The position numbers and the translations under genes are program-made. A DNA stretch of 64,000 nt from an uncultured Verrucomicrobiae bacterium. GTDB lineage: Bacteria; Verrucomicrobiota; Verrucomicrobiia; Chthoniobacterales; UBA10450. The stretch spans positions 64,001-128,000 of the forward strand of contig CAWFGO010000005.1 in the NCBI GenBank assembly GCA_963815455.1. The letters are read 5' to 3'. This document shows positions 4,412-15,821 of this stretch, piece by piece. Each line of letters opens with the position of its first letter. Within the stretch, counting starts at the first letter, position 1. The notes beneath the pieces are model-generated. The model worked only from the letters and a program-made list of their open reading frames with translations, had not been told where the DNA came from and did not search any database.

Positions 4412-5287
4412 TCACGCGCGCGGGTGCGCGTTCGCGTAGGCTTTCTTCAAGCGTTCCACGGTGACGTGGGTGTAAATCTGCGTCGTCGACAAACTGGCGT
4501 GGCCTAGCAAGGCCTGCACGCTGCGCAGATCCGCGCCGCGATCGAGCAGATGCGTAGCGAAACTGTGACGGAGTTTGTGCGGACTGATCGAGATCGGGAT
4601 CGACGTGTGGCGCAGGTATCGTTTTAGAATCAGCCAGATCGAGCGAGGGGAGATTCGTGTCCGCGATTTGTTCAGGAAGAGCGGTCCGGAATGCACATTG
4701 GCTGCGGCTCGATAACGCTGGATCGTTTCCAGCGCGGGCAGACCGACTGGACACTCGCGTTCCTTCCGGCCCTTTCCAAAGGCGCGCACCGACTCGGTGT
4801 AAAGATCGACATCGGCTACGTCGAGCGCAGCAAGTTCACTCAAGCGCAAACCGCTCGAGTAAAAAAGTTCCATGATGGCGACATCCCGTAGCGGCATCCA
4901 GGGCGGCGCGGTCCGATTCTTCTCGATCTTGAGCGGCGCGGCCAGCAATTCTTCGATCTGGTTGCGGGTGAGAACCAGCGGAAGTTTTTTATCGATTTTC
5001 GGCAATTGCAGTTCGCGCACCGGATCGCGCCGCAGTTTTTTCCGTTCGGCGAGAAAGCGATAAAACGTCCGGAAGGCCGAAAATTGCAGGCGAACATACG
5101 AGCGTGCCTGTTCCCGTTTCATCAAATCGAAGAGGTAGGCCCGGAAATCGTCGGTTGTGCATTTTTTCCAAGGCGTTTTGTTTTCAGCGCGAAACGCTTC
5201 GAGCGCCTGCCGATAGATCTTGAGTGTGCGCGGCGATGCGTTCCGCTCGACCGCGAGATAACGAAGAAATTCGTTTATTTCTGTCAT
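4412..5287 (-). CDS. xerC: Tyrosine recombinase XerC/XerD
   Basis: LRDVAIMELFYSSGLRLSEL, HKLRHSFATHLL, LLGHASLSTTQIYTH; start placed at MTEINEF. Confidence 0.9.
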   Translation of the reverse strand: MTEINEFLRYLAVERNASPRTLKIYRQALEAFRAENKTPWKKCTTDDFRAYLFDLMKREQARSYVRLQFSAFRTFYRFLAERKKLRRDPVRELQLPKIDKKLPLVLTRNQIEELLAAPLKIEKNRTAPPWMPLRDVAIMELFYSSGLRLSELAALDVADVDLYTESVRAFGKGRKERECPVGLPALETIQRYRAAANVHSGPLFLNKSRTRISPRSIWLILKRYLRHTSIPISISPHKLRHSFATHLLDRGADLRSVQALLGHASLSTTQIYTHVTVERLKKAYANAHPRA

Positions 5288-5364
5288 TCCGAGCGAAGTC
5301 GAGGAATCCCGCGATCCTAGTGGAGAGTATTGCAACGGGATGTCTCGACTCCGCTCGACATGAC
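5282..5364. repeat. Palindromic repeat family A, copy 2
   Basis: TGTCATTCCGAGCGAAGTCGAGGAATCCCG ... CGGGATGTCTCGACTCCGCTCGACATGAC, an imperfect inverted repeat of about 29 bp. Confidence 0.85.
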
Positions 5365-7079: not shown

Positions 7080-7888
7080 AAGGGCAACTCGAGGAGCCGG
7101 GCTTCGCCGGGACGGCTGCGCCCCGGTCGATGATCGCGGTTCGATCACTCGCCAAGAAGCTTGGGCAGCAGGAGATCTTGCGTGGAGTCGATCTGGATGT
7201 GACCAAAGGTGAGACGCTGGTCATCATTGGGCGTAGCGGCGGAGGCAAGAGCGTGTTGCTAAAGCACCTCGTCGGTTTGATGAAACCCGACACGGGCGAA
7301 ATCTGGATCGAAGACCAGAACATCGTTGGGATGGGTGAGCGCGAGCTTGCCGGAATCCGGCAAAAGGTCGGGATCTTGTTTCAAGGCGGAGCACTTTTCG
7401 ATTCGATGACGGTCGAGGAAAACATTGCCTTTCCATTACGTGAAGCTGGGGTGCGAGATCCGAGGATTTTACGCGGGAAAGTGGAGGAGATGCTCGAAGT
7501 GATGGAGATGGAGGGTGAACAGGAGAAGATGCCGGTTAGTTTAAGCGGCGGAATGAAGAAGCGGGTTGGCCTGGCGCGATCGATTATTCGGCGTCCGTCG
7601 TGCATCCTTTATGACGAGCCGACCTCGGGCCTGGACCCGGTGGTAGCCGACAGCATCAATCGATTGATTCGGCGCTTACAGCAGCGTTTTGGGGTAACGA
7701 GCATTGTCGTTAGTCACGACATGAAGAGTGCCTTTCACGTGGCCGACCACATCGCCTATTTACACGAAGGGGGAATTTATTTTCATGGCTCGCCGGCGGA
7801 ACTTCAACAGTCTGCCGATCCATTGATTCATGATTTTCTCCACGGACACTCGACTGGGGTGCGAGGAACGATGGATGCTTCCAAATGA
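7076..7888 (+). CDS. mlaF: MlaF family ABC ATPase
   Basis: GRSGGGKS, LSGGMKKRVGLAR, YDEPTSGLDP; ATGA overlap with the mlaE stop. Confidence 0.93.
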   Translation: MKGQLEEPGFAGTAAPRSMIAVRSLAKKLGQQEILRGVDLDVTKGETLVIIGRSGGGKSVLLKHLVGLMKPDTGEIWIEDQNIVGMGERELAGIRQKVGILFQGGALFDSMTVEENIAFPLREAGVRDPRILRGKVEEMLEVMEMEGEQEKMPVSLSGGMKKRVGLARSIIRRPSCILYDEPTSGLDPVVADSINRLIRRLQQRFGVTSIVVSHDMKSAFHVADHIAYLHEGGIYFHGSPAELQQSADPLIHDFLHGHSTGVRGTMDASK

Positions 7889-8855: not shown

Positions 8856-9895
8856 TGACGCCGTTAGTCACCGTAAATCTGCTGCGCGTCCTCTTCGTGA
8901 CGTTTTGCGCGGCGATTGGCGGCATCATCAGCTCTGAAGTTCAGGGGACGCTCTGGCCCGGTGTTTTGGCTGGAGTCATTTTCGGCCTGGCCATCGTGTT
9001 GATCGACCGGCTGCTTAGGGGATTTTCGCTGCGCGCTTTTTCTTCGGCGACCTTTGGTCTGTTGCTCGGGTTGCTCTTCGCCAATCTCCTAATGGCGTCG
9101 GATGTGCTGCATTATCAATCCGACACGATACAATGGATGGCGCGCCTGATTGTGTACAGCGCGTTCGGTTATCTCGGCATGATGCTGGCAATGCGAAGCA
9201 ACCGCGACGAATTCTCACTAATTATTCCGTACGTGCGGTTCGCTCGCGAGACGACTCAACACGAGCCGATCCTGCTCGACACAAGTGTAATCATCGACGG
9301 TCGCATTGCCGACCTGTGCGCGAGCGGATTCCTCAGTCGATCGCTCATTGTTCCGCGTTTTGTGTTGGGCGAATTGCAAGCCCTGGCTGATTCGCGCGAC
9401 CCAATCAAACGCGAACGCGGCCGGCGCGGGCTCGAGATTTTGAATCAGCTTCAGGGCTCGGGCGATATCGAACTCACCATCCACGAGAGCAGCGGCGATG
9501 CGGACCCGGCTGTCGATGCGCGCTTGGTTCGGCTGGCTCGGCTTTTGCAGGCGCGGTTGCTTACAAATGACGCTGCGCTTTGTCAGGTCGCGCACCTGCA
9601 GGCGGTCTCAACGCTCAACTTAAGTGACCTGGCCCGCGCGCTGCGCCCGGTTGTTGTCGTCGGCGAAGAAATCGATATTGCGCTTGTGAAGGAAGGCCGC
9701 GAGCAGCATCAGGCGGTGGGCTATTTACCGGATGGGACGATGATAGTTGTCAACCACGCTCGGGCGCGACTGGGAAAAAGTGCGACAGTGATTGTGGCGA
9801 GCGCGCTCCAAACGGCAGCCGGGCGTTTGATTTTTGCCGAGTTGAAGGAAAGTTCAAATTCGTCGTCCGCTCAAATTATGGAAGTAACCCAATGA
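8855..9895 (+). CDS. Membrane PIN/TRAM domain protein (YacL-like)
   Basis: Four TMs, LLDTSVIIDGRI, RGRRGLEIL, QAVGYLPDGTMIVV. Confidence 0.9.
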   Translation: MTPLVTVNLLRVLFVTFCAAIGGIISSEVQGTLWPGVLAGVIFGLAIVLIDRLLRGFSLRAFSSATFGLLLGLLFANLLMASDVLHYQSDTIQWMARLIVYSAFGYLGMMLAMRSNRDEFSLIIPYVRFARETTQHEPILLDTSVIIDGRIADLCASGFLSRSLIVPRFVLGELQALADSRDPIKRERGRRGLEILNQLQGSGDIELTIHESSGDADPAVDARLVRLARLLQARLLTNDAALCQVAHLQAVSTLNLSDLARALRPVVVVGEEIDIALVKEGREQHQAVGYLPDGTMIVVNHARARLGKSATVIVASALQTAAGRLIFAELKESSNSSSAQIMEVTQ

Positions 9896-11222: not shown

Positions 11223-11577
11223 GGGGGCGTACTGGCTTCGACTTGTGGTTGGAAGCGCAGGCGGCATGTCGAGGATGGTTCGTTGGCCTCGTAAAAAACC
11301 GAGCCAAAACAAATAAACGCAGATCACCAAGATCTCGCTCTCGCGGCTTAATTGACCGTGACGTTTGGAGCTGGACGCCTGCTACGGCGCCAAACGTGGA
11401 CAGCAGGCTAATCGGACGGCGGAGCGACCGCGCCGGACGGTGAAGGAAATTCGCGGATGCTCGGGAGACGGCAGTGCGCCGGTGCAACGTCGGCTCCTTA
11501 AACTTTAACGCCGGATAAACATGTAGATGTCTGCGTGGATAACCGCGAGGACAGGGGTTCAACTCCCCTCGCCTCCA
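11223..11577 (+). ncRNA. ssrA: tmRNA (transfer-messenger RNA)
   Basis: 5' GGGGGCGTACTGGCTTCGAC; 3' T-arm GGTTCAACTCC and CGCCTCCA acceptor with G3-U pair; tag ORF 11319-11351 encodes ADHQDLALAA*. Confidence 0.96.
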
Positions 11578-11687
11578 GGCTTCGCTCGCGACGAAGTGGC
11601 GAGTGAAGCCTGTCGCGGCGTAGCCCTTTGGCGAAGCCGGACTTTTCGACCCAACAAATCAACGTCGCGAGCTACGCCCCGGCAAGC
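11577..11687. repeat. Palindrome cluster upstream of the GIY-YIG gene
   Basis: Hairpin AGGCTTCGCTCGC/GCGAGTGAAGCCT (11577-11611); imperfect IR GCCTGTCGCGGCGTAGC (11608-24) / GCTACGCCCCGGCAAGC (11671-87). Confidence 0.7.
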
Positions 11688-11699
11688 CATTCAAACCTT

Positions 11700-11945
11700 G
11701 TGGCATTTACCTACGTGTACATCCTCCAAAGCGCGGTCGATCTCGATCGGTTCTATACGGGACTGACCACCGATCTGCGCGATCGTCTTAAACGGCATGA
11801 CGACGGCCGCGTGCGCCATACCGCGAAATGGAAGCCATGGACGCTGAAAACATACATCGCGATGTTGGATCGAAAGCGGGCAGCTGAACTCGAGCAATAC
11901 CTTAAATCACATTCGGGCCGCGCGTTCGTGAAGAAGCATCTGTAG
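11700..11945 (+). CDS. Small GIY-YIG nuclease family protein
   Basis: YVYILQS...FYTGLTTDLRDRLKRH...HTAKWKPW...AELEQYLKS; GTG start assumed. Confidence 0.88.
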   Translation: MAFTYVYILQSAVDLDRFYTGLTTDLRDRLKRHDDGRVRHTAKWKPWTLKTYIAMLDRKRAAELEQYLKSHSGRAFVKKHL

Positions 11946-12034
11946 ACAGCGCAGCCCAGGCGGAGGCTGCCGCGCCGAATGAAGCGACATGTTTCATCCT
12001 TCTCGATTCATCGGTGTTCCGGTAAGTAAGACGC

Positions 12035-12343
12035 GTGATACGCCGGAATTTCAGCAGTCGCGCGCGGGAGCTTTCGGGGGCCAGGCGATTATGATCTTCA
12101 TCCCGAAGAGCGGACGCACCTGGGTGCGGACTTTCCTCTGTTCATACTTTTGCAAACGGCACGGGCATCCGTTTACGCTCGATCCGAATCAATACCGCGA
12201 TCCGGCAATCCCGCGGATTATTTTTAGCCACTATTTGTTCGAGCACCGCACCAGGGGCAGTTTTTGTGATTGGCTCCGCGGAAAATATCTGGTTCCAGCG
12301 GAAGAGCTTCGCCGGGCTAAAATTGTCCTCCTGGTGCGCGATT
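12035..12343 (+). pseudogene. Truncated, frameshifted paralog of the sulfotransferase at 14242
   Basis: GTG-IRRNFSSRAR start, -1 frameshift near 12080, then IPKSGRTWVR...RGKYLVPAEELRRAKIVLLVRD; homology ends there. Confidence 0.85.
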
Positions 12344-12445
12344 TGGCCTTCCAAAGGCGAAAACATGCTGTGTAGTCAGCGGCCCGAAAAGGTGTTTCAA
12401 TACTCGCGAAGCCATGCGCTCGGCATCAACAAGACAACGGTTGAA

Positions 12446-12517
12446 AGAGTCCACCTCATCGAGAAGGCTTTCCAGCGCCTCATGTTCGACACGACAAGCT
12501 TCGAAAGCGTAAGCTAA
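12446..12517 (+). pseudogene. Probable C-terminal remnant of a type III R-M methyltransferase (Mod)
   Basis: RVHLIEKAFQRLMFDTTSFESVS* resembles the V-x-LIE-x-x-F-x-x-LMF end of type III Mod proteins (recognised from memory); the stop overlaps the satD ATG (TAATG). Confidence 0.55.
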
Positions 12518-13194
12518 TGAAAGTCCACGCAGTCATGACAGGCGATGTAATCCGCTCGCGGCATTTATCGGCCGCGCAGCACAAAAGCGTCAATTCGCGT
12601 CTAAAGGCGCTGTCGATAAAGTTTGGTGAACTACATCCCGGATCGATGGTGGGGGAAACAGATATTTTCCGAGGCGATAGCTGGCAGTGTTGCCTCAAAC
12701 AACCTTATCTCGTGGTGACGGCCGCCGTTTTTTTTCGGGCTGGATTGAAGGCGGACGATCTGGACAGCCGAATCGGCCTGGGGATCGGAACGGTAGAAAC
12801 GCTGAATCCAAAAAAGATTTCGGAATCGACCGGACCAGCATTTGTCGCGTCCGGCCGTTCGCTCGACTCGCTGGAGAAGGGCCGGAACATGGGTTTGGTC
12901 GTGTCCGACGAAAAAGATGCGGATTCAAAACGGTATCTTACCGACTTGGTTATCCCCCTTCTCGACGCGCAAATCACCCGCTGGACGCAACGAGAAGCCG
13001 TGGCCGTTTTCGGAAGCATGCACGGTCTAACCCAACAGGAAATCGCGGATTGGCCTCCGGCAAAGGCCGAACACGGCGGCCAGCCAACACGTCAGGCGAT
13101 CCAGGACGCGTTAACGCGAAGCGAATGGACCGGCTTGGTGGAATCGCTTTTGAAAAAGCTGGAGAAACTGTTGAAGGCGGAGGAATGGAAGTGA
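12517..13194 (+). CDS. satD: SatD family protein (nucleotide-cyclase-like N domain, C-terminal HTH-like segment)
   Basis: AVMTGDVIRSR, IFRGDSWQ, RIGLGIG, GPAFVASGR, WTQREA...TQQEIA...TRQAI. Confidence 0.85.
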   Translation: MKVHAVMTGDVIRSRHLSAAQHKSVNSRLKALSIKFGELHPGSMVGETDIFRGDSWQCCLKQPYLVVTAAVFFRAGLKADDLDSRIGLGIGTVETLNPKKISESTGPAFVASGRSLDSLEKGRNMGLVVSDEKDADSKRYLTDLVIPLLDAQITRWTQREAVAVFGSMHGLTQQEIADWPPAKAEHGGQPTRQAIQDALTRSEWTGLVESLLKKLEKLLKAEEWK

Positions 13195-13203
13195 ATTTGG
13201 ATG

Positions 13204-13252
13204 TGCAAGCCAAAAAGCTTGCATTTGTCGATAGCAAGCCAAATAGCTTGCT
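13204..13252. promoter_or_regulatory. Twin palindromic operator-like sites between satD and DUF3307
   Basis: TGCAAGC-CAAAAA-GCTTGCA (13204-13223) and AGCAAGC-CAAATA-GCTTGCT (13233-13252), both perfect 7-6-7 palindromes. Confidence 0.7.
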
Positions 13253-13258
13253 TGAGCC

Positions 13259-13966
13259 ATGACCTCGGTTTTTATCATCCTCCTTTGCGCCCATTGTTTG
13301 GGGGATTTCCTCCTCCAGACCGATTGGATCGCCAGGAACAAGAGACGGCTATGGGTGCTGGCTCTTCATGCCTCCATGCACGGCGCTCTTGCTTACGTGC
13401 TACTGCAGAAGTGGGAAATCTGGAAACTTCCGCTCTTACTGGGAGCGCTCCATTTTGCCGTCGATTTCCTTAAAGCACGCGTCCGGAGATCGGCCACGTC
13501 ATTTGCGGCCGATCAAGCCGCCCATGTGATCCTGCTGGCCGCACTTTCGTGGTGGGCAGTGCACAGCGGGCAAGTTTCGGAGTTCTCAGGATTGGGTTGG
13601 GCTTGGATCGTTCTGCTCTCGGGCTTCAGTGCGGTGGTAAGGGGGGCGGGGTTTTTCGTGGGTGAAGTCGCAGAAGCGCTCATCAGAAATAATCCAGGAT
13701 TGGAAGCTGAAATAAAACAGGGCCTTAAAGAAGGCGGAAAAATGATCGGCCAATTGGAGCGGGCGCTGGTCTTTCTTTTCCTGGGCATTGGTTATCCCGA
13801 AGGCATTGGATTCCTGGTTGCGGCAAAATCGATTCTACGATTTGAGGAGGCCAAGAAGCAGCCGCTCGCCGAGTACGTTCTCGTGGGCACTCTTCTAAGC
13901 TTCAGCCTGGCAGTCGCGCTTTCCTGGTTGACCTTGCGTGTTCTTGAAATGGCTCCAAAACCGTAA
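13259..13966 (+). CDS. DUF3307 family membrane protein
   Basis: AHCLGDFLLQ, HASMH, LHFAVD, ADQAAH, GKMIGQLER, AAKSILRF, EYVLVGTL. Confidence 0.88.
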   Translation: MTSVFIILLCAHCLGDFLLQTDWIARNKRRLWVLALHASMHGALAYVLLQKWEIWKLPLLLGALHFAVDFLKARVRRSATSFAADQAAHVILLAALSWWAVHSGQVSEFSGLGWAWIVLLSGFSAVVRGAGFFVGEVAEALIRNNPGLEAEIKQGLKEGGKMIGQLERALVFLFLGIGYPEGIGFLVAAKSILRFEEAKKQPLAEYVLVGTLLSFSLAVALSWLTLRVLEMAPKP

Positions 13967-13972
13967 GCAAGA

Positions 13973-14079
13973 ATGCCTATCCACTTCGCGGACAAACTAA
14001 TTCTTGCTCGGTGGGCGTTGGGCTAGCTCGATACTTCGACAGATTCTCCGAGATGCTCCGCGGTCCGGAGTTTGAGGGC
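13973..14079 (+). pseudogene. Probable N-terminal remnant of a type III R-M Res (DEAD-box helicase) subunit
   Basis: MPIHFADKLILARWALG*L then frameshifted FDRFSEMLRGPEFEG, resembling the F-x-x-KL-x-L-x-x-W-x-L...EG start of Res proteins (from memory). Confidence 0.45.
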
Positions 14080-14241
14080 CGGTCGGGGAGATGGAAACGG
14101 GTCGCGGGGACGAAACGGGACATCTTTTTATTCTTGTCATGACTTAGTCGGCTTCCGCTTGGCCGATGGCTAGAATGCCGGAGGATGAGATTCGCGCCAT
14201 GCTTCTTTGCGAATGCTGGATTTTCCGGGTAATACAGACGC

Positions 14242-15057
14242 GTGATTCGGCGGAATTTTAGCAGCCGCGCGCGCCAACTCTCAGGCGGCGATGCGATCGT
14301 GATTTCAATTCCGAAAAGCGGGCGCACCTGGGTGCGCGCTTTCCTTGCCGCCTACTTTTCCAAAAAACATGGGCGCGAATTCACTTTGGATCTGAAAGGA
14401 GATGTCGATGCTGGAATCCCGCGGGTGATTTTCACTCACGATCGGTTCGAGCACCGCACGAAGGGCAGTATCTGGGACCGGGTGCGAGGAAAGTATCTGG
14501 TTCCGGCGAAAGAATTGCGCCGCGCCAGGATCATTCTGTTGGCGCGCGATCCGCGCGATTGTTTTGTCTCTCTTTATCTTCAGATGACACGCCGGACGGA
14601 AGAGACGCCAGAGGCATTGCGCACCAAAACGATCGGCGAATTGTTGCGCGATCACCGGCACGGGATTCGAGCGATAATCGAAACGATGAACAGATGGCTC
14701 GAACAGTTCGCCGGGCGCGAAAATTTTGCTTTAATTCGCTATGAATCGTTGCGCAGTGCGCCCGCCGAAAATTTTCGGAAATTACTCTATGCCATTGGCG
14801 ACACTGCGCCGGACTTGTCGATCTTGGAGGAGGCGATCGAATTCTCGCGATTCGAGAACATGCAGCGAATGGAAGCATCCGGCGCGTTCGAATCGAAAAT
14901 CCTGCGGCCAGGCGACGTGCGCGACCCCGAATCGTATAAGGTGCGCCGGGGACGAGTGGGCGGGTTTGCTGAGTATCTTTCCGTCGAGGATCGACAATAT
15001 GCCGATGCCATGTTGACTCGGCTCAATCCACGCTTCGGCTATCGTAAAATGTTCTAA
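14242..15057 (+). CDS. Sulfotransferase domain protein
   Basis: 5'-PSB motif SIPKSGRTW, 3'-PB motif RDPRDCFVS, KVRRGRVGG. Confidence 0.9.
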   Translation: MIRRNFSSRARQLSGGDAIVISIPKSGRTWVRAFLAAYFSKKHGREFTLDLKGDVDAGIPRVIFTHDRFEHRTKGSIWDRVRGKYLVPAKELRRARIILLARDPRDCFVSLYLQMTRRTEETPEALRTKTIGELLRDHRHGIRAIIETMNRWLEQFAGRENFALIRYESLRSAPAENFRKLLYAIGDTAPDLSILEEAIEFSRFENMQRMEASGAFESKILRPGDVRDPESYKVRRGRVGGFAEYLSVEDRQYADAMLTRLNPRFGYRKMF

Positions 15058-15821
15058 ACCCGACCCGTTCCCCAGCGGCGGTGAAGAAAACGTTCCCACG
15101 GCGAGAACAGAATTTTATCCGCGAGCAAACCGATCAGGACGATCACGAGCATGATCCCGATGACCTGATCCATCGCGTTCAATTCGCGGCCGTAGTGGAG
15201 CAAATGACCAAGGCCGAAGCCGGTCAGGATCGTCACGTAAATTTCCGCGGCCATCAGCGAGCGCCATGCGAAAGCCCAACCTTGCTTCATCCCGCTGACC
15301 AAATACGGCAGTGAGGCTGGCAAGATCACCCGCGTCCATCTGTGAAAAAGATGCGAGCCCATTGTTCGCGCGGCCCGCGCGTAAATCGGCGGAATCGTGC
15401 GTACGCCAGTATCGGTTGCGATCACTACCGACCAAACCGTTCCCATGATGACCACGAAGAGCATCGCGCCTTCTGTTTGACCAAACCAAAGCAGGGCCAG
15501 CGGAACCCAACAAACACTGGGCAAGGTTTGCAACCCGAGCGCGAGCACACCGATCGTATCTTCCACGAATGTCGATGAAGCGGTGAGCAAGCCAAGCGGA
15601 AGTCCGATGACAAGACCAATCAAATATCCCAGGAGCAACCGGCGCAGTGTGACCGCGGCGGCTTGAAGCAATGTGCCATCGCGAGTTGCGCCGATTATGT
15701 ATTCGCCCACGCTTCGCGGTGATGGGAGCAGAATGGGCGACCAGATTTTCGCGTGAACAATTGCCGCCCAAATCGCGACCAACGCTGCGAAAAACAAAAG
15801 TGCAAGCAGAGTGCGTCTCAT
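15054..15821 (-). CDS. ABC transporter permease (SsuC/TauC/NrtB type)
   Basis: LQTLPSVCWVPLA, AARTMG, WRSLMAAE. Confidence 0.92.
   Translation of the reverse strand: MRRTLLALLFFAALVAIWAAIVHAKIWSPILLPSPRSVGEYIIGATRDGTLLQAAAVTLRRLLLGYLIGLVIGLPLGLLTASSTFVEDTIGVLALGLQTLPSVCWVPLALLWFGQTEGAMLFVVIMGTVWSVVIATDTGVRTIPPIYARAARTMGSHLFHRWTRVILPASLPYLVSGMKQGWAFAWRSLMAAEIYVTILTGFGLGHLLHYGRELNAMDQVIGIMLVIVLIGLLADKILFSPWERFLHRRWGTGRV

Follow-up and report, generated by a model that had tools for sequence, protein, structure and literature searches.

Among the closest described counterparts of the gene pair reported here is the streptococcal sat operon (PF16264 and PF11750), in which satD is followed by satE, a gene that presumably encodes a DUF3307 protein. 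"Secretion and acid tolerance" is the only annotation given to the family. We describe a satD-DUF3307 pair of the same two families and in the same order, found in a 64,000-nucleotide stretch (the window) of contig CAWFGO010000005.1 (positions 64,001 to 128,000) from an uncultured Verrucomicrobiae bacterium. Both genes are intact by their open frames and Pfam matches: satD (12517..13194, 225 aa) and the membrane protein gene (13259..13966, 235 aa) lie on the forward (+) strand, as do all neighbouring genes between 11223 and 15057. Whereas the sat genes overlap in Streptococcus pyogenes, those of the window are separated by a 64-bp gap that contains a palindrome array, and the SatD of the window falls below the Pfam cut-off. 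We propose, with slightly less than even confidence, that the pair is a mobile and self-contained module in which SatD restrains a likely toxic membrane partner, and that it serves as an accessory anti-phage tripwire. The steps of this proposal differ in strength. SatD very probably binds the array and represses the membrane gene, and the partner is reasonably likely to be toxic when SatD is lost; the defence role, the least supported step, is plausible because of the use of a defence-gene slot and the carriage on prophages and plasmids.

The essentiality of satD in S. pyogenes provides one line of evidence. In PMC4440532, satD (221 aa) overlaps satE (238 aa) and the two adjoin gid, and its supplement lists satD as essential, the overlapping satE as non-essential and gid as "NC". 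PMC11323703 similarly gives satD as essential in 9/9 transposon-sequencing (Tn-seq) datasets, though it is present in 178/249 genomes, and as the sole accessory gene in the top essentiality quarter, with the other gene of its two-gene operon non-essential in 9/9 datasets. Polarity is unlikely to be the cause, because trmFO, which belongs to a separate operon, scores 0.13 in the same source. That satD is essential while its partner is dispensable points to an inhibitory and not an activating logic, and the published essentiality fits restraint by a product, by repression or by binding alike. Should the partner be a toxin that SatD keeps in check, this oddity of an essential accessory gene becomes directly testable. 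PMC10326533, PMC13492114 and PMC5786311 only repeat the acid-tolerance label. Our literature search, outside of which lay subscription journals and bioRxiv supplements (with possible candidate-defence tables), found no paper linking SatD with DUF3307 or phage defence. Among the papers listed for SatD as a cyclase, all were unrelated, SatD is unmentioned in the mCpol papers found, and no mechanism for SatD appeared in the papers searched, those for PF16264, PF11750 and pEC34A being judged by title.

The second line of evidence comes from the array and from the C-terminal helix-turn-helix (HTH) of SatD, neither of which was part of the original prediction for this locus. Two palindromes of the form GCAAGC-N6-GCTTGC lie between the genes (13205..13222 and, 29 bp after it, 13234..13251), the second ending 7 bp ahead of the DUF3307 ATG, and they are likely SatD operators; no other phased pair of this pattern occurs in the genome. 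When a strict detector was applied to 79 loci, arrays lay between the genes in 37, upstream in 17 and downstream in 0, compared with 3/3950 shuffles, and the spacing was 29 in 43/44 strict-detector matches. A motif-free detector with the spacing fixed at 29 recovered 67/79 loci and 0/395 shuffles. For bases 1, 2, 4 and 5, the best of 210 protein columns are residues 192, 193, 194 and 197, which fall in the predicted recognition helix (~191-201): R192 pairs with G in 10/10 cases and Q192 with A in 55/57, while K/R197 pairs with C in 25/25 and Q/D/E197 with G in 37/39. On a tree from which the HTH was left out, 13 changes each are required for residue 197 and for base 5, and R192 and D197 of the window agree with its own GCAAG half-site. 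From this co-variation we infer with considerable confidence that SatD binds the palindromes, and the residue-to-base code gives sharp binding predictions whatever the biological role. The C-terminus matches HTH families in some members, with Sigma70_r4_2 in 9/61.

The N-terminal part of SatD (~1-155) is a predicted palm domain. The SatD of the window matches Pfam SatD at E 7e-5 (22.9 bits, below the curated cut-off of 29), and the Pfam model matches 32/61 aligned members at E 0.05, while the SatD profile built here recovers a Pfam-positive SatD (locus L100). In the structure model (pLDDT, the predicted local distance difference test, 94.5), residues 1-155 match class III cyclases, GGDEF proteins, GTP cyclohydrolase III and Cas10/Cmr2 palms, families that tie at Z 10-12 (Cas10/Cmr2 at Z 10.7-11.5). 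Class III folds matched include Ma1120 5d15 (E 4e-5) and 5mbg (Z 11.8, root-mean-square deviation 2.9, 137 residues aligned), and the cUMP synthase 7r65 of Pycsar (the pyrimidine cyclase system for antiphage resistance) matches the palm fold at E 4e-4. The profile aligns the TGD and RGD motifs to both metal aspartates of Ma1120 (E 0.06), and these aspartates and three further residues are conserved across 61 rows (D10 60, D54 61, R85 59, R52 61, Q57 61). These results bear out the acidic motifs and the predicted cyclase-like fold with both aspartates that had been recognised from the sequence. The modelled likeness to class III cyclases and Pycsar PycC would thus cover the fold, the metal aspartates and the position of the phosphate-binding Arg, but it does not extend to the positions that we take to be those of the base-selecting Lys and the transition-state Asn and Arg, read on the profile alignment, which are unconserved in SatD (I50, with I/V/L in 58/61; V110, variable; R114, 15/61). 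The model matches palm-fold enzymes instead of CD-NTases (cGAS/DncV-like nucleotidyltransferases), with no PADLOC match, and no mCpol/OptS chain appeared in the top rows of three SatD fold searches.

In Panoptes (mCpol/OptS with 2TM-beta/OptE), OptS relies on D6/D57, and a toxic membrane effector is held back by the product that it makes (PMC12657218 and PMC12657230). Similar to this arrangement, the window has a predicted two-aspartate palm protein (D10/D54) encoded upstream of a membrane protein, and the toxicity of the effector without its synthase in Panoptes is paralleled by the essentiality of satD in S. pyogenes. SatD differs in having an HTH and an operator array, and none of the 61 SatD members matches Pfam mCpol at E 0.05; the partner in the window also differs, being all-helical in its model and without a beta-barrel, 2TM-beta or CARF domain. 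A likeness to toxin-antitoxin pairs is suggested by the upstream DNA-binding protein with apparently cognate operators. By analogy, its mode of action may resemble that of Panoptes or of a toxin-antitoxin pair, while the pair is apparently not a member of Panoptes, Pycsar or CBASS (the cyclic-oligonucleotide-based antiphage signalling system).

The partner matches Pfam DUF3307 at E 2e-15. It comprises an N-terminal His/Asp DUF3307 domain (residues 4-101) and a C-terminal domain (~115-235), and its model (pLDDT 95.8) has eleven helices and no strands, with ~5 hydrophobic segments on our own scale. Near-invariant positions include the His/Asp residues, whose clusters had been pointed out in the original prediction, and E167, R168, K190, R194, E205, Y206 and T211 of the C-terminal domain. 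Among 81 loci, which were chosen by SatD, the partner stands behind satD in 78 (71 full-length, 6 partial or broken and 1 cut by a contig end), and the remaining 3 stop at a contig edge before it. Paired searches of two 401-genome samples revealed six genomes in which a partner of ~115-125 aa, consisting of the C-terminal half only, lies directly behind satD, and two genomes in which the His/Asp domain is present and SatD was not found. This implies that the C-terminal domain is the constant partner, and the His/Asp domain is probably not the effector core. We considered whether the short partners are broken genes and rejected this, since they recur with their own starts. Stand-alone DUF3307 proteins of 120 aa also occur in phages (E 0.09-0.6, template-modelling score ~0.65 on the target). 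Foldseek returned no Protein Data Bank match to the partner at E <0.001, and the best Z was 8.5, to helical bundles; a match to Cas10d (Z 7.7) was dismissed because it is confined to a helical stretch, and among 56 members Pfam lent no support to a relationship between DUF3307 and Zn-dependent phospholipase C or YdjM hydrolases. The ESM Atlas gave DUF3307 or unnamed clusters only. Three loci (L092, L098 and L099, on a lambdoid prophage contig and enterobacterial plasmids) encode partners of >300 aa with an insertion between the domains, and in another (L032, 1252-2169) a PycTIR-like gene with an in-frame TGA displaces most of DUF3307 behind satD.

The pair of the window lies between two remnants of a type III restriction-modification (R-M) system. 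The upstream frame, with the C-terminus ...VHLIEKAFQRLMFDTTSFESVS, consists of the final 23 codons of mod (12446..12517), and its TAA (12515-12517) overlaps the satD ATG as TAATG. Downstream, a res-like ATG at 13973, 6 bp past the DUF3307 stop, opens the broken 5' end of res (13973..14094), with a stop after codon 17 and a 7-bp deletion. A relative from the same order (G039) carries, in order, an SNF2 helicase, an open reading frame (ORF) that we take to encode a four-helix-bundle-like protein, mod, a GxxExxY/PDDEXK_3 gene, satD, a frameshifted DUF3307 gene and res, and PADLOC labels proteins of this locus MTase_III (E 5e-203), REase_III and DrmD-like. By tblastn, window positions 12446-12514 correspond to residues 1111-1133 of its Mod (78% identity, E 2e-6) and 13982-14079 to the N-terminus of its Res in two pieces (92% and 80%, E 1e-5). 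Related R-M loci also match at the DNA level (mod tail E 1e-14; res head E 4e-22, with the stop and the 7-bp deletion). No complete mod or res was found, as tblastn of the 90% complete genome returned these two remnants only. These results confirm the layout of the two genes and their junctions, the assignment of the flanks to the Mod C-terminus and Res N-terminus, and the claim that the pair was retained while the host R-M system was deleted. In the related locus of G039, res itself is split (L004, 15-3949): close to the end of the contig, its second half runs on the other strand, by inversion or misassembly.

In empty sites mod and res overlap as TGATG, and the TAATG overlap of mod and satD replaces it, so that satD appears to have taken over the translational coupling of mod. 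A public soil-run contig, from a strain that differs at 10 letters and 3 gaps, spans 12304-12656, and the upstream junction is therefore no assembly artefact; the soil-run contigs leave 13820-15088 uncovered. The soil strain has a 2-bp insertion within the mod tail, which indicates that this remnant is not maintained as a reading frame. Over codons 1-129 of the DUF3307 gene, the differences listed against the soil strain, taken from one low-depth contig, comprise 15 silent and 11 replacement changes (ratio of replacement to silent rates, pN/pS, 0.24, p 4e-4), and judged by this ratio the gene is under purifying selection relative to the soil strain.

Using the Res protein, we retrieved 80 metagenome loci, and in 68 of them both ends of the mod-res junction are present. 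Among these 68, 33 are empty, 28 have called cargo and 7 have a gap but no called gene. The cargo scan took in 29 of 34 cargo ORFs, 5 near-duplicates being excluded, and 25/29 match PADLOC models, 18 strongly, with HEC-01, PDC-M56, RhuM/PDC-S05, SoFic and YhcG/PDC-S02 among the strong matches. The mod-res slot thus takes up cargo of the defence type, as had been proposed for genes between R-M subunits, and SatD is a rare occupant of it. Embedded accessory systems such as PrrC and the HEC/PDC genes in R-M, BREX (bacteriophage exclusion) and Hma operons resemble the pair in their exact insertion between core genes, coupled to mod, and 10.1101/2024.01.29.577857 (Payne et al.) reports 7/9 embedded candidates as validated. 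The pair differs from them in that neither protein has a PADLOC model and in that it mostly occurs outside such operons.

Other loci show the same pattern of deletions around an intact pair. In L006 an SNF2 start runs into the C-terminal 86 aa of Mod as a fusion, followed by the intact pair and only 35 aa of Res, and in L013 a tRNA and the last 33 aa of Mod precede the pair. In L066 brxA and a fusion that ends with the tail of PglX precede the intact pair, behind which the start of PglZ is joined to the tail of BrxL, so that BREX is deleted on both sides, and L080 is a similar BREX wreck on its upstream side. In a quick tree, the four R-M-nested cases fall within one 13-member clade, whereas the two BREX cases group as sisters in a different clade, and judged by these neighbours the pair is nested in two or more host systems independently. 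A PADLOC screen of 150 fragments for tiny remnants, in which 5 fragments were downstream ones and most came from a list of 222 upstream ones, overlooked the remnants of the window and of L013 themselves; hidden remnants elsewhere are therefore uncountable. In L206 (2356-3642, genome G296) a type I restriction subunit lies directly 5' of satD, and in L203 (2269-3677, genome G330) a partnerless satD is followed by a HEC-01-like ATPase pair.

The family comprises 4353 clusters at 50% identity (E up to 0.001) and spans bacteria, archaeal plasmids and prophages. Around the 81 SatD loci, scans covered, of 779 neighbours, the 150 nearest non-redundant ones (Pfam) and 148 chosen ones (PADLOC), and small toxin-antitoxin genes lie near several loci in addition to those with known defence genes or remnants. 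Among 72,556 plasmid records, SatD matches 6 and DUF3307 matches 18. We opened eight plasmid loci: two lie in defence clusters (OLD+UvrD, TIR and Pycsar in one; OLD+UvrD and DUF4365 in the other), a third has an AbiEi pair nearby, a fourth is pEC34A, three are without a defence cluster and one is unannotated. On the 3.8-kb, ColE1-like pEC34A the pair is the only annotated cargo, no match to this cassette was found in 5426 complete E. coli genomes, and no palindrome array passed the detector (16/20). A Haloplanus (archaeal) plasmid (L100, 7294-8711) has the pair with an upstream 29-bp phased palindrome, near an AbiEi pair. Three of the eight viral loci belong to temperate-phage contigs; there the pair comes downstream of replication genes, in two cases ahead of endolysin and terminase, and one of these pairs is near an AbiZ-like gene; in the other 5/8, SatD has no partner match. 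In the viral contigs L087 and L089-L091, SatD forms the first half of a frame of 400-412 aa with no DUF3307 match behind it. In L019, two near-identical tRNA-Ser copies (7750-7841 and 9476-9567), one of them altered, bracket the pair alone, which looks like a minimal integrated element.

In the mechanism that we favour, SatD dimers would sit on the array and keep the membrane gene downstream of it repressed (as well as the res behind it in an intact operon), and the palm domain, to judge from its model, may bind and perhaps join nucleotides, coupling restraint to the nucleotide state of the cell. The C-terminal membrane domain would be the toxic unit, which phage infection would free when it shuts down the expression of host genes or depletes nucleotides. 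With such restraint of a toxic domain, the pair would be hard to lose, and deletions would stop just short of it. A more specific version, which we regard as unlikely, is an undescribed, cross-domain, inhibitory-signalling immune system in which the palm enzyme makes a nucleotide antidote for the helical membrane toxin and the HTH and array control toxin transcription. If this were true, phage shut-off or nucleotide-sponge proteins would trip the system, R-M and BREX would be backed up, the essentiality of accessory satD in S. pyogenes would be explained and the stand-alone phage DUF3307 domains could be a counter-measure. A palm-plus-HTH antidote would, if true, be a new layout for toxin-antitoxin and nucleotide-guard defence.

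Restraint of a toxic partner might instead serve no host at all. A selfish addiction cassette without a defence role, hitch-hiking into tRNA sites, plasmids, prophages and R-M or BREX slots and persisting because it is hard to lose, would account for the asymmetry in essentiality, for the patchy spread (SatD in 3/61 genomes of the order and 22/401 of the phylum, the genome of the window included in both), for the mostly housekeeping neighbours and for the tRNA found within 600 bp upstream in 9/81 loci, against 0.97% of random points in the genome of the window, kin among the loci not being independent. We nevertheless think this improbable, as it leaves aside the repeated use of slots otherwise filled by defence-type cargo and the accessory positions in prophages, one near an AbiZ-like gene. 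About as doubtful is that SatD is a ligand-sensing one-component regulator, its palm domain serving as the sensor, of a membrane enzyme or transporter that is non-toxic and has an everyday role in cell physiology; the position in the R-M system would then be incidental. The HTH-operator code, the unconserved class III Lys, Asn and Arg, the stable housekeeping contexts in Chloroflexota and Ignavibacteriota and the S. pyogenes chromosomal site beside gid all agree with such a regulator, but an accessory gene essential in all nine datasets beside a dispensable partner, the presence of the pair as sole annotated cargo of pEC34A and the retention of D10 and D54 do not. The activation logic of the original prediction, akin to CBASS or Pycsar, in which infection switches on a SatD cyclase whose product activates the membrane effector, fares worst and is very improbable. 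It draws on the palm fold near class III cyclases, Pycsar cUMP synthases included, on both aspartates and R85, on the order of enzyme before membrane gene and on the PycTIR gene in place of most of the partner in L032. That gene, however, is interrupted by an in-frame stop and seems to be a separate insertion, and the partner of the window has no PycTM or PycTIR match (PADLOC, E 1e-8); a synthase would be expected to be dispensable, yet satD is essential in S. pyogenes; the class III substrate and transition-state residues are unconserved; and the HTH, which co-varies with the palindromes, and the operators would be unexplained.

Several observations weigh against a restrained toxin with a role in defence. 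For SatD binding, independent pairs number 3 and 4 for residues 192/197, none contrary but too few (p 0.125-0.25), those for residue 194 are without direction, and the array of the window showed no promoter consensus. The S. pyogenes SatD and partner are distant from those of the window, and the essentiality of satD could come from non-specific harm of membrane-protein overexpression. In the two 401-genome samples, intact satD without an intact partner occurs in G039, G330, G692 and, uncertainly, G153, and both genes are broken in G219 and G446, while in G064 (L231) an intact full-length partner lies behind a glycosidase-like gene and satD was not found in the genome, a counter-example that also agrees with the regulator; this asymmetry of 3-4 versus 1 genomes is too small for a test. 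Defence is further weakened in that neither SatD nor the DUF3307 protein matches PADLOC at E 1e-8, SatD occurs in 0/80 of the related R-M loci surveyed and the four R-M-nested cases may, by their grouping, derive from one insertion. According to 10.1101/2024.01.29.577857, HEC-01 failed to protect when assayed, and many of the cargo models are PDC/HEC candidates defined by embedding itself. The expected enrichment in defence neighbourhoods is modest: most SatD loci have housekeeping neighbours, ~8/81 genome loci have a known defence gene or its remnant nearby among the neighbours scanned, and few phylum-sample loci adjoin defence genes, with 7/83 phylum-sample and phage ORFs matching PADLOC (E 1e-12).

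The surroundings of the pair indicate how the insert may have arrived, and include a transfer-messenger RNA (tmRNA) and a duplicated sulfotransferase start, neither noted before. The tmRNA gene (11223..11577, ARAGORN, tag ADHQDLALAA) is a likely integration landmark. In a genome of the same genus (G001), the tmRNA is followed by the sulfotransferase region within ~140 bp, whereas in the window there follow a small GIY-YIG nuclease gene of uncertain start that is absent from the G001 site (11628..11945, Pfam GIY-YIG E 6e-12), a truncated sulfotransferase start (11999..12342), the R-M wreck with the pair, and the intact sulfotransferase gene at the right insert boundary (14242..15057, Pfam Sulfotransfer_1 E 8e-19). 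The truncated 5' copy is 72% identical to the intact copy at 14228-14550, and each of the two starts is ~76% identical to G001, which suggests that the insert came in along with the sulfotransferase of a relative. The upstream copy shows an apparent 1-bp loss in a G run and ends abruptly at 12342. The ~105 bp that follow (12343-12448), up to the mod tail, occur once in the genome and are present in the soil-run contig too. Further upstream, 4412-5335 presumably encodes a XerC-type tyrosine recombinase, by its motifs, and is probably unrelated to the insert. In another locus (L011, 2771-3010), a small ORF after a tRNA-Ser resembles the GIY-YIG gene in appearance.

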